Shown here piece after piece: positions 3,880 to 7,178 of a DNA stretch of 64,000 bases. Numbering within the stretch: the first letter of the stretch is position 1; each line of letters opens with the position of its first letter. The position numbers and the translations under genes were made by a program. The stretch lies in the NCBI RefSeq assembly GCF_988243305.1, contig NZ_OZ547137.1, one strand, 5' to 3'. Under the pieces are notes generated by a model, which saw only the letters and a program-made list of their open reading frames with translations, did no database searches and was not told the origin of the DNA. Source of the DNA: a plasmid.

Positions 3880-3917
3880 TGGGGTCTGAAGTCCAATGGA
3901 ACGAAAACGTACGTTAG
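3880..3917 (+). repeat. Tn3-family terminal inverted repeat (Tn1000/gamma-delta-like)
   Basis: ggggtctgaagtccaatggaacgaaaacgtacgttagt resembles the 35-38 bp Tn3/Tn1000 IR (GGGG...AATGGAACGAAAACGTACGTTA). Confidence 0.75.
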
Positions 3918-4045
3918 TGAAGTCACTGTCTGATATATCATAAATTATCAGACATATGAAAACAGTGCCGTTAATGTGTCTATTAAATCGATTTTTTATT
4001 ATAACAGACACTAGTTGTCCGATATTTGATTTAGGATACATTTTT
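3918..4045 (+). promoter_or_regulatory. putative res site and tnpR promoter region
   Basis: Imperfect palindrome tgtctgata-tatcataaatta-tcagaca (resolvase site I-like) plus further AT-rich subsites directly upstream of tnpR. Confidence 0.55.
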
Positions 4046-4603
4046 ATGCGACTTTTTGGTTACGCACGGGTATCAACCAGTCAGCAGTCTCTCGATATTC
4101 AGATCAAAGCGCTCAAAGATGCAGGTGTAAAAGCAAACCGTATCTTTACCGATAAGGCATCCGGCAGTTCTACAGACAGGGATGGGTTGGATCTGTTGCG
4201 GGTAAAAGTAGAAAAAGGTGATGTCATTCTGGTGAAGAAGCTCGACCGTCTTGGCCGCGATACCGCCGATATGATCCAACTGATAAAGGAATTTGACGCT
4301 CAGGGCGTCGCCGTCAGATTTATTGACGATGGGATCAGTACAGATGGTGATATGGGACAAATGGTGGTGACCATTCTGTCCGCAGTGGCACAAGCTGAAC
4401 GCCGGAGGATACTGGAGCGTACAAATGAAGGCCGACAGGATGCAAAAATGAAAGGTATTAAGTTTGGCCGTAAACGCTCAGTGGACAGAGGTTCTGTGCT
4501 GGCGTTGCACCAGAAAGGTACAGGAGCAACAGAAATTGCCCGTCAGTTAAGTATAGCCCGCTCTACGGTTTATAAAATTCTGGAAGAAGGGAAGGCAGAA
4601 TAG
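4046..4603 (+). CDS. tnpR: Tn3-family serine resolvase TnpR
   Basis: [19 protein letters not shown]...[20 protein letters not shown]..., catalytic serine motif and C-terminal HTH; start at ATG 4046 inside ORF 3956..4603. Confidence 0.9.
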
Positions 4604-4702
4604 GCCAATATTCACACAATTAACTAATATTTTCTACGCAATACGTGACACCTTTCGAGGAGAGGTGCTCGAAATTTCAGACATAAAAAGCCCCGTAGGG
4701 CC

Positions 4703-5104
4703 TTAGATGATTTCTTCCAATGCTGATTCCAGTTCTTTTACTTGCATTGCTCTAAGACGAGGAGCTAATGTTCGATGGGCGTTTAAGTAATCAATGGCTC
4801 TTGTTACCAGCTTTCCTCCGCCACAGACAACGAAATAACTCTGATGTTGTGTGTGTTGTGCATCAAGAACTGTGTGGCCTAGCTTCTCTATTGCGGTACC
4901 ACTCACTTCCTGCCATTTAGCCGTTATTTGAACGGTACCGGTATTAGTGAACAACAGGAAGTGGGCTATTTCATTCTTTCCCGCGATCAGACCAGGATAA
5001 CTGACATTTTTTTTAAACGTCATCGGAGCTTCTGAGTTACTTAGCTCAAAGCCTGCCCCAGAAATAATTGCTTCAATATCACGCAGTAATTCTGCTCTGG
5101 ACAT
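4703..5104 (-). CDS. hypothetical protein (133 aa), cargo of the Tn3-like cassette
   Basis: Uninterrupted ORF between tnpR and the intron; no family recognised. Confidence 0.45.
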   Translation of the reverse strand: MSRAELLRDIEAIISGAGFELSNSEAPMTFKKNVSYPGLIAGKNEIAHFLLFTNTGTVQITAKWQEVSGTAIEKLGHTVLDAQHTQHQSYFVVCGGGKLVTRAIDYLNAHRTLAPRLRAMQVKELESALEEII

Positions 5105-5214
5105 ACTTTCACCTTATCGTGTTGTATCTTTTTTGATCTTGGGGGGGAGGCAGAATTTTCAAGATGTAGGCGTTTTATTTTATGGTTAATAATCACCGCC
5201 ACTCTTATGGTGAG

Positions 5215-7082
5215 AGATCGGGATAGGGGCTGATCTCACGATTAGCCTCCTCCCACACCACCGTACATACGGGTCCGTATACGGCAGTTCGGTTATGTTT
5301 ATCGTCGCCTGCCTATAACTCCGGTAGGCCCAGTCTGACGAACAGGCGATTGGGAAGTGCTATGCTCAGTGCCGGACTACAGCTTATCCGCCATTGCTTA
5401 TGGCAACTCCCTACCGTTTGCGCTGCAAGGTCTTTGCTTACTCCCCGTCTGCGCAACTCTTTGAAGCGCTTGCTGCCCGTTTTCCACTGTTTCCACAGGA
5501 CACTTCGCAACCTTCGCCTTATCCACCTGTTCAGATCTCTCATCAGCGTTTGCCACTGGTTCAGTCCATAGTAGCTTTTCCATCCCGTCAGATATCGCTT
5601 TAACGGTTCGATAAGCTGCTCTAGGCTTTTGCCCGTGTTACGCCCCGTCAGTTCTCTTATCCGGGTTTTGAACCGCTTCACCGATTCCGGCAACACCACA
5701 CACCACACCTTTCTGCCCCTCCTGAAGCTGTAACCCAGGAACTTACGCGTCTCCGGAAGCGCTACCGCGCTCTTCTTCGCGTTGAGCTTCAGCTTCAGTT
5801 TCCGGTTCAGCCAGTGCGTCAGCCCCGCCATCATACGGTTGCCTGCCCGTTCACTCTTCACATACACATTACAGTCGTCTGCGTAGCGGGCGAACTTCAG
5901 GCCGCGTTTCTCAAGTTCCTTATCGAAGTCATCCAGCAGCAGATTCGATAACAGTGGCGACAGTGGGCCGCCCTGCGGCGTCCCTTCTGTCACCGGCATT
6001 ACCAGACCCGCTTCCATCACACCTGCATTCAGGTACCCGCGGATAAGTGACAGCACCCGTTTATCCGATACTCGTTTCGCTATCCGGCTCATCAGTACAT
6101 CGTGATTCACCCGATCGAAGAACTTTTCCAGATCGAGGTCAACCCCCCAGCTGTAGCCCGACTCGATGTATTTCTGAGCCTGCTTCACTGCCTGATGCGC
6201 CGAGCGTCCGGGCCGGAACCCGTAGCTGCTGTCGCTGAACGTCGCATCCCACTGTGCCTGCAACACCTGCATCATCGCCTGCTGGATAAAGCGATCCACC
6301 ACCGTCGGGATGCCCAACAGACGTTCGCCGCCGCCGGGCTTCGGGATAGTCACTCTTCTTACAGGGGATGGGCGGTAGCTGCCGGACAGCAGTTGCGCTT
6401 TCAGTTCCGGCCAGTGGTGTCTCAGATAGTCCGGCAGTTCGCTTACGCTCATGCCGTCGGCTCCCGCCGCACCTTTATTGGCCTTCACTCTTTTCAGGGC
6501 ATGCCTGAGGTTGACTGGTTCGCAGATGGCTTCCATCAGCCACGCTGTTGACGATGGACTTTCTCTGGTCGTCGGTGCCTGCACGGTTTCAGCCCCCTGA
6601 GAACCGGCGTCAGGGGCTTCACCCCGTCTTCCTGCATCAGGGTCGCGATACGTTTTCTGCTGCATGACCGTTCAGAACCTCCGCTGATACTCGTCACTCA
6701 TTACCGTTCGGGCCTTCAGACGCGCCTGTCCTACTATGCCCTCTGCTGACTCCTGTCCGCCGGTCAGCGCACCTTACGGTACGCTCAGTTCTGAATACAG
6801 AACGCCAGACAGGCCTCCCGGGGTAAGCTCAGCCGCTTTCACCACACACCTGCCCAATCTACCACCCCGGCTCTTGATGGTTATGGCCTTTGCAATCAAT
6901 GGCTTGCTCCGCCAGCCGGGTAGGCCTCATATCGGATTTCTGTTCGTCAGGTCATGGTTTTGCTCCACGCTTCCTTCAGATCCCGCCTCACGACGGCACC
7001 CTTGCGCTTCACGAGTCCTTCGCCACCATCAGGCTGGACAGGGGACTTTCACCCCCGAGCTGCTGAGCATGCCCGGCACACC
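5215..7082 (-). mobile_element. group II intron (bacterial class C-like; boundaries approximate)
   Basis: 5-prime end GTGTGCCGGGCATG... on the minus strand sits right after a terminator hairpin; domain V-like stem-loop (rc of 5255..5292) and domain VI downstream of the IEP ORF. Confidence 0.75.
5313..6665 (-). CDS. group II intron-encoded reverse transcriptase/maturase (no endonuclease domain evident)
   Basis: 450 aa with RT motifs (GIPTVVDRFIQQA, FARYADDCNVYV with YADD) and a C-terminal maturase X domain. Confidence 0.9.
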   Translation of the reverse strand: MQQKTYRDPDAGRRGEAPDAGSQGAETVQAPTTRESPSSTAWLMEAICEPVNLRHALKRVKANKGAAGADGMSVSELPDYLRHHWPELKAQLLSGSYRPSPVRRVTIPKPGGGERLLGIPTVVDRFIQQAMMQVLQAQWDATFSDSSYGFRPGRSAHQAVKQAQKYIESGYSWGVDLDLEKFFDRVNHDVLMSRIAKRVSDKRVLSLIRGYLNAGVMEAGLVMPVTEGTPQGGPLSPLLSNLLLDDFDKELEKRGLKFARYADDCNVYVKSERAGNRMMAGLTHWLNRKLKLKLNAKKSAVALPETRKFLGYSFRRGRKVWCVVLPESVKRFKTRIRELTGRNTGKSLEQLIEPLKRYLTGWKSYYGLNQWQTLMRDLNRWIRRRLRSVLWKQWKTGSKRFKELRRRGVSKDLAAQTVGSCHKQWRISCSPALSIALPNRLFVRLGLPEL

Positions 7083-7083
7083 A

Positions 7084-7107
7084 TAAAAAAGCCCCCACGG
7101 GCTTTAT
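7084..7107 (-). terminator. rho-independent terminator-like hairpin forming the intron 5-prime exon
   Basis: Minus strand aaagccc-gtgg-gggcttt stem-loop followed by a T-run, immediately upstream of the intron 5-prime end. Confidence 0.5.
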
Positions 7108-7140
7108 TACTAAATTCAATACAAACAACAAATTATGCTC

Positions 7141-7178
7141 TTAACGTACGTTTTCGTTCCATTGGCCCTCAGCCCCCT
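7141..7178 (-). repeat. Tn3-family terminal inverted repeat (second copy, inverted relative to 3880..3917)
   Basis: Reverse complement reads agggggctgagggccaatggaacgaaaacgtacgttaa, matching the IR at 3880. Confidence 0.7.

Follow-up and report, generated by a model that had tools for sequence, protein, structure and literature searches.

Hybrids of the blaTEM transposons Tn1, Tn2 and Tn3 arise by exchange between their res sites (res × res), and in such hybrids the parentage of the sequence switches at res site I. The centre of this site is where the resolvases of Tn3-family transposons carry out strand exchange (PMC13367494). TIME-RES, a non-autonomous Tn3-family element of Pseudomonas that is 1186 bp long and a hybrid of TIME and Tn5563, was captured in the act of transposition, which produced a 5-bp duplication (PMC4133298; Szuplewska et al. 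2014), and IS101, the 209-bp element of plasmid pSC101, forms cointegrates with the Tn1000 transposase and is mobilised by Tn1000 TnpA (PMC4133298; PMC13367494). The locus described here lies on a plasmid contig (NZ_OZ547137.1, assembly GCF_988243305.1), of which a stretch of 64,000 nucleotides, hereafter the window, was analysed. It is a cassette of 3297 bp (3881-7177) with the layout of TIME-RES-type elements, that is, a Tn3-type inverted repeat (IR) at each end, an internal res site and a resolvase gene (tnpR), without a transposase gene (tnpA). The cassette is very probably a hybrid of IS101 and ISEc63, generated in place by resolvase-mediated res × res recombination and followed later by the gain of a group II intron.

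The evidence that carries this reading is the change of parentage within res. The leftmost 59 bp of the cassette (3881-3939) agree with the IS101-like elements of L005 and L006 at 58/59 positions and with the IS101 of pSC101 at 56/59, as against 41/59 for the left IR (IRL) region of ISEc63 and 22/59 for the sequence to the left of ISEc63's own site I; from 3940 to 7177, with the intron left out, 1365 of 1374 positions (99.3%) are those of ISEc63. The cassette is consequently not IS101 proper, of which it holds only nucleotides 1-59. Site I of ISEc63 reads TGTCCGAAATATT-AT-AAATTATCAGACA and that of the window TGTCTGATATATC-AT-AAATTATCAGACA; the two differ at three positions, all on the left side of the central AT and the nearest of them directly beside it, and the right side is identical. 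In the alignment, parentage thus changes midway through site I, which is 28 bp long. The res region as a whole spans 3927-4045, and to the right of the crossover it agrees with the res of Tn1000 (gamma-delta) of plasmid F at 98/106 positions and with that of IS101 at 76/106, which bears out the res-like site that an earlier, preliminary description of this DNA had reported. The switch from IS101 to ISEc63 at this very point therefore argues for a res × res hybrid and not for an ordinary deletion of tnpA, and the position of the junction suggests that a serine resolvase of the Tn3/gamma-delta type made the join.

The features of the cassette and its flanks are the following (window coordinates, strand, description and basis):

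3761-3880, no strand: left flank, the backbone sequence where IS101 would have inserted; the match ends exactly at 3880
3881-3939, plus: IS101-derived arm, in which IRL (3881-3918) is followed, after a spacer of 8 bp, by the left half of res site I; 58/59 to L005/L006
3927-3954, plus: hybrid res site I, TGTCTGATATATC-AT-AAATTATCAGACA, with the crossover AT at 3940-3941; from the alignment
3940-4045, plus: remainder of res in its ISEc63/Tn1000 form, comprising the right half of site I together with sites II and III; within the 1365/1374 match
4046-4603, plus: tnpR, an intact serine resolvase of 185 amino acids (aa); from resolvase structure-sequence matches
4687-4704, minus: terminator-like hairpin just after the 133-aa open reading frame (ORF), unoccupied
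4703-5104, minus: 133-aa passenger gene of ISEc63, encoding a small protein of PD-(D/E)XK fold
5217-7081, minus: complete group II intron of 1865 bp, 5' GTGTG ... GAT 3'; from intron-less copies and Rfam
5313-6665, minus: intron-encoded protein (IEP) of 450 aa with reverse transcriptase (RT) and maturase domains; TIGR04416, Pfam RVT_1 and GIIM
7088-7105, minus: terminator-like hairpin and T-run of ISEc63; the intron lies 6 nt downstream of the stem
7140-7177, minus: right IR (IRR) of ISEc63/Tn1000 type, with GC and not TT at tip positions 5-6
7178-7429, minus: IS2 fragment, its terminal 252 bp, into which ISEc63 would originally have inserted; 95% to the IS2 of plasmid F

The terminal IRs are of the ~38-bp type GGGG...ACGAAAAC, as in autonomous Tn3-family transposons. 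An inverted-repeat search returned arms of 36 nt (3881-3916 and 7142-7177) that are 92% complementary, and on reading by eye the IRs extend to 38 nt with 33/38 paired (3881-3918 and 7140-7177). The preliminary description had been right that they are present and align with each other as inverted repeats, although its coordinates were one base off. A degenerate pattern for the Tn1000/IS101 IR had two matches in the window, which are the two IRs of the cassette, and none in 100 shuffles, and there is no third IR of this type in the 64 kb. The absence of tnpA, claimed in the same description, was also upheld: no Tn3-type tnpA, which would encode a DDE transposase of ~1000 aa, is found (the longest ORF has 450 aa in the cassette and 860 aa in the window), homology to ISEc63 begins only at res, and the cassette holds no tnpA remnant. 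The intact resolvase noted earlier is confirmed as well, its product being ~90% identical to the Tn3 resolvase 5cy1 (E 4e-103), with gamma-delta resolvase 1gdt as a further match (E 4e-91); it is a small serine recombinase of 185 aa with Ser10 and a C-terminal helix-turn-helix, and res lies directly upstream of its gene. An ORF that begins at 3956 was considered as an N-terminally extended TnpR and rejected, the resolvase alignment starting at the ATG at 4046. A promoter scan gave no usable candidate.

Two inverted Tn1000-type IRs around an intact res-tnpR, without tnpA, could also be explained by a single Tn1000-like transposon that lost tnpA through internal deletion and was then mobilised in trans to this place, and TIME-RES shows that such elements transpose (PMC4133298). 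This explanation is nevertheless very unlikely, given that the left IR and the next 21 bp are those of IS101 and not of the IRL of ISEc63 (58/59 versus 41/59), and that the junction lies at the res crossover and not at an arbitrary deletion end. The non-autonomous Tn3-family derivative envisaged in the preliminary description stands as regards the lack of tnpA and the two Tn1000-type IRs, and needs to be amended in that the IRs stem from different elements joined at the centre of res site I.

The flanks of the cassette bear on the same question. No 5-bp target duplication is found outside the IRs (ATTCT on the left and TGGTA on the right), and the search for identical cassettes at other sites yielded one and the same left flank in all window-type records, 11/11 in PLSDB and 19/19 among complete E. 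coli records. Plasmid p510016_80 (L014), moreover, carries the IS101 left arm at this same flank and has no ISEc63 sequence, the arm ending at nucleotide 55, where an IS110-family-like element interrupts it. The missing duplication, the single flanking context in 30 records and the arm of L014 all speak against an internally deleted transposon that moved here. They also bear on another possibility, namely that the hybrid was made elsewhere by res × res recombination and transposed to this site with the Tn1000/ISEc63 transposase, after which a rearrangement, for instance one linked to IS2, erased the duplication. Both ends are indeed of types used by the transposases of the Tn1000 group (PMC13367494), and the region is rich in insertion sequences (IS). 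However, the left junction, ...AATAAATTCT followed by GGGG, is common to the window and to L014, whose IS101 arm has no ISEc63 attached to it; the IS101 end is therefore older than the hybrid at this site. Since a target duplication is, in addition, present in 0/6 hybrid types, this second explanation is regarded as very unlikely. The site itself occurs empty, as ...AATAAATTCT followed directly by CACTTACTGC, in L016 and L017, and the right side of this empty site is missing from the window. Given that the window-type hybrid is found in one flanking context only and without a target duplication, it was therefore probably formed in place and then inherited vertically in the pAA plasmids of enteroaggregative E. 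coli (EAEC).

The window is not the only place where an IS101 arm is joined to another element at this point. Among the full-length matches to 3881-4100 there are at least five other hybrids, which pair the IS101 left arm with ISEc63-like or with Tn2/Tn3 (blaTEM-1) partners:

L001, Salmonella Minnesota plasmid: diverged IS101 left arm and ISEc63-like right part; 1434 bp, without the intron and in another context
L012 (pBA92_2), 3425-5357: IS101 left arm and Tn3-type res-tnpR-blaTEM-1-IRR
L011 (pMCR_915_E1), 4001-5933: IS101 left arm and Tn2-type res-tnpR-blaTEM-1
L010 (pFORC43), 2118-4050, reverse complement: flank of the window, IS101 arm and Tn2 res
L019, metagenome contig: flank of the window, IS101 arm and Tn2 res
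L020, metagenome: a further hybrid variant with other cargo

In every hybrid the parentage switches at the centre of site I, with four partner res sequences and five flanks. A before-and-after pair is provided by L007, an intact miniature element, and the hybrid L012: their left flanks are identical, and both have the IS101 variant TGTATG. In pFORC43 the same IS101 half-site is now found on a Tn2 res, which appears consistent with reuse of the site. The 5-bp target duplication is absent in all six hybrid types, as expected if their left and right flanks come from two separate insertions. A search with the hybrid-junction pattern gave 0 matches in species-representative genomes and 5 in metagenomes, of which 4 lie in the same context as the window or represent its Tn2 variant and 1 is new (L020), with no target duplication. 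Three of these hybrids (L010, L011 and L012) are transposase-less blaTEM-1 cassettes between an IS101 IR and a Tn3-type IR.

The recurrence of the breakpoint is also relevant to a third explanation, in which remnants of IS101 and ISEc63 came to lie side by side by chance, through homologous recombination or an IS-mediated deletion and without a resolvase. Short patches of identity around site I are common to both res sequences, but those at the junction are ≤ ~6 bp, too short for RecA-dependent recombination; besides, the join falls exactly at the centre of site I and restores all 28 bp of it, and the same breakpoint recurs with the four partner res sequences and five flanks. Chance juxtaposition is accordingly held to be extremely improbable, and res × res recombination remains the preferred origin of the cassette.

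With regard to the IS101 side of the hybrid, a query with 3881-3941 matched 295 plasmid records, several of which carry it as the left terminus of a ~209-bp element without an ORF. In this element a res-like core lies between an IR and its inverted counterpart, and the copies are 88-93% identical to the IS101 of pSC101. Four intact copies of IS101 or IS101-like elements (L005 2501-2709, L006 2501-2709, L007 2501-2708 and L009, which is pSC101) lack a 5-bp direct repeat, their flank pairs being, in this order, TATAA/GAATG, AAATA/GTTAC, AACAC/GGGAG and GATAT/TTTGA. If general, such duplication-less copies would suggest frequent exchange of flanks at the IS101 res, or else unresolved or rearranged cointegrates. 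As a tentative proposal, to which slightly less than an even chance is given, elements of the IS101 type on enterobacterial plasmids may serve time and again as res "docking sites" for the resolvases of resident Tn1000, ISEc63, Tn2 and Tn3, whereby tnpA is stripped and the intervening DNA deleted, leaving cassettes of tnpR and cargo between two Tn1000-type IRs, some with blaTEM-1. If true, this would be a general route for the remodelling of plasmids and the formation of non-autonomous transposons, and the resulting cassettes would stay candidates for mobilisation in trans and keep an active recombination hotspot. No description of such a route was found in the literature searched. Hybrids of IS101 with the res of ISEc63 or Tn2 were likewise not found there, though IS101, TIME-COMPs and TIME-RES are described in it, and they may still be described elsewhere.

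As for the window itself, the order of events that best accommodates these observations can be proposed. IS101 would already have been present at ...AATAAATTCT when ISEc63 inserted into an IS2 carried by the same plasmid, of pAA type, such that its res and the res of IS101 formed a direct repeat. Resolution would then have removed the right half of IS101, the backbone DNA, most of IS2, and the IRL and tnpA of ISEc63. Later on, a group II intron resembling class IIC would have retrohomed behind the terminator hairpin near IRR.

Several points weigh against this reconstruction. The IS101 res is reported to be functional with the Tn3/Tn1000 resolvases, but poorly (PMC4133298; PMC13367494), and some IS101 copies have AA or GA as their central dinucleotide instead of AT, a difference that should make recombination with AT sites harder; L011 and L012 are nonetheless hybrids whose central dinucleotide is AA. 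Among the intermediates and by-products, PLSDB holds no intact IS101 at the left flank of the window and no junction of IS2 with the IRL of ISEc63, no PLSDB record spans the junction of the reciprocal chimera (ISEc63 on the left and IS101 on the right), and the complete E. coli genomes contain no IS101 right end next to the right side of the empty site. Furthermore, a deletion in cis is the simplest and probable course, but an intermolecular recombination would fit the data alike. Matches of 79% identity in Klebsiella were considered as the reciprocal chimera and rejected; they belong to an ordinary element of the Tn1000 group whose res is not IS101-like.

The right-hand part of the cassette derives from ISEc63. 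In plasmid pPSJ-22_1 the same tnpR lies beside a divergent upstream gene annotated "Tn3-like element ISEc63 family transposase", and the complete ISEc63 of this plasmid measures 4473 bp and consists of IRL, tnpA, res, tnpR, the PD-(D/E)XK ORF and IRR. This full ISEc63, with tnpA and both IRs (L004), is flanked on both sides by the duplication GATCT. Over the 3605 bp from IRL through tnpA and res to tnpR, ISEc63 is 97.4% identical to the Tn1000 of plasmid F, and their IRs agree at 35/35 positions. At the tip of the right IR (7172-7173, positions 5-6) all pAA-type copies read GGGGGC, while the tip is GGGGTT in ISEc63/Tn1000 and GGGGTC in IS101 and L001; the GGGGGC tip could impair the use of the right end by the transposase. 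The right IR adjoins an IS2 fragment, as had been reported before, of which only the last 252 bp are kept (7178-7429; 95% to the IS2 of plasmid F), and the IS2 sequence at the presumed insertion point of ISEc63 is ...CTTCCTGGTA.

The group II intron is missing from L001, L003 and L004 at exactly the 5217/7081 boundaries, and the plasmid matches that cover just 37-39% of the query are the same sequence without the intron. Its absence from the copies of ISEc63 elsewhere indicates that it is a later arrival. The intron is complete, as the preliminary description had it: domains D1-D4 match Rfam families RF02001 (137 bits) and RF01998 (54 bits), D5-D6 match RF00029 with 38.7 bits, just below the gathering score of 40, the ends fit 5' GUGYG and 3' AY, and the D1-D6 ribozyme carries the RT/maturase ORF in D4. 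The IEP (450 aa; TIGR04416, 421 bits) has only the Pfam domains RVT_1 and GIIM, and no endonuclease domain was detected in it. The intron lies 6 nt downstream of a terminator-like stem with a T-run, and two relatives, in a Klebsiella plasmid (L023, 90%) and a Providencia plasmid (L024, 80%), are also inserted just after a hairpin and T-run at unrelated loci. Insertion just downstream of a terminator-like hairpin is the mode of targeting of class IIC introns (PMC1702495; PMC3522654), and judging by its targeting at three unrelated sites and its endonuclease-less IEP, the intron behaves like one of class IIC. The cassette contains two much alike hairpins on the minus strand, AAGGCCCTACGGGGCTTTTTATG at 4687-4704 and AAAGCCCGTGGGGGCTTTTTTATG at 7088-7105, of which the second alone is occupied by the intron; the first could offer a further, free site for homing.

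The 133-aa gene that had been noted between the IRs (ORF 4703-5104, minus strand) is a natural passenger of ISEc63. Its product has a Pfam match to PDDEXK_11 (E 2e-9), with a restriction-endonuclease-like fold, and gave no match in NCBIfam, PADLOC or PHROGs and no sequence relative in the PDB. It belongs to a small family (48 clusters at identities down to 57%), in which D9, K63, Q65, E66, E73 and K74 are invariant, and no clear (D/E)XK spacing can be assigned. The predicted PD-(D/E)XK assignment holds at fold level only. Homologues of 59% identity occur in the marine metagenome contigs L025-L027, where the gene lies at ~5.0-6.0 kb and a conserved block comprises DUF2971, DUF4365, SduA_C (Shedu) and a RecD-like helicase, a setting that looks like a defence island. 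A homologue in Kosakonia is a stand-alone chromosomal gene.

Several E. coli plasmids, 55989p among them, match the cassette region at 99.9% identity. In pNORD58_1 the aat operon, aggR, aap and the agg3 genes are found in the neighbourhood of the cassette, and the window is therefore part of an EAEC virulence plasmid of the pAA type. The left flank (3761-3880) is 98% conserved at 268 chromosomal places in E. coli, occurs in plasmids as well, and adjoins small hypothetical genes (WP_000074142.1, a 330-aa protein), so that it belongs to a widely shared module. The region around the cassette is a patchwork of IS remnants, with more IS2 fragments at 8874-8924, 26000-26078 and 28592-28777 and an IS3 copy from ~7569. 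In plasmids of the NC_011752.1 (55989p) type an IS66-family element also lies inside the cassette, where the match comes in two pieces with 82% coverage, and in NZ_KY706108.1 the match stops at window position 7137, just before the right IR. The IS110-family-like element of L014 extends from 4258 to ~5830, has long terminal inverted repeats and lies inside the IS101 res site I; its junctions are …TGTCTGATA joined to GGGGTCAGTTTGG … CCAAACTGACCCC joined to TATCAGAGG…, and the sequence that follows is neither IS101 nor ISEc63.

With respect to the present role of the cassette, tnpR and res most plausibly may now serve the resolution of plasmid multimers and constitute a recombination hotspot. 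That a transposase could mobilise it in trans, as the preliminary description suggested, is structurally possible, and in principle the Tn1000/ISEc63 enzyme might do so; against this, the lack of a target duplication and the single left flank show no trace of such movement. Neither the cassette nor its sister hybrids bear any sign of transposition, there being no target duplications, one context for the window type and no helper tnpA in the window.

The interest of the case is that it explains a structure which in many EAEC virulence plasmids (55989 and O104:H4-type pAA) carries a bare recombinase or hypothetical protein annotation, tnpR itself being annotated elsewhere as a recombinase family protein. 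It would represent a clean natural case in which a miniature element and a full transposon were fused by a resolvase precisely at the point of crossover, and, together with the blaTEM-1 sister hybrids, it shows that elements of the IS101 type have been involved repeatedly in such exchanges. For the reconstruction of plasmid history this means that flanks without a duplication would be expected and not anomalous, and it bears on whether resistance cassettes that lack tnpA can still move.

Compared with its two parents, the cassette shares with the IS101 of pSC101 the IR-res-...-IR layout and the left 59 bp, that is, IRL and the left half of site I, but the right half of site I, sites II and III and the IRR of IS101 have been replaced by those of ISEc63, and tnpR and cargo have been added. 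What it has in common with ISEc63 runs from the centre of site I to IRR at 99.3% identity and takes in the right half of that site, sites II-III, tnpR, the PD-(D/E)XK ORF and IRR; it differs from ISEc63 in having neither IRL nor tnpA. Its intron shares with bacterial class C (IIC) introns an IEP without an endonuclease domain and insertion a few nt after a hairpin and T-run. The mechanism would be the same as in the hybrids of Tn1, Tn2 and Tn3, with the difference that one partner here is a transposase-less miniature and the product loses tnpA. The resemblance to TIME-RES lies in the combination of a miniature TIME-like element with the res-tnpR module of an autonomous transposon between Tn3-type IRs, without tnpA; the parents there are TIME and Tn5563, whereas here they are IS101 and ISEc63, of the Tn3/Tn1000 subgroup of Enterobacteriaceae. 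Unlike TIME-RES, the cassette has kept a passenger gene and gained a group II intron (3297 bp versus 1186 bp), its junction is unusually easy to read and can be assigned to the crossover point of res site I, and it shows no sign of movement. The cassette is, in sum, an enterobacterial example of the known TIME-RES-type, resolvase-made hybrids of the Tn3 family, and not a novel type of system.

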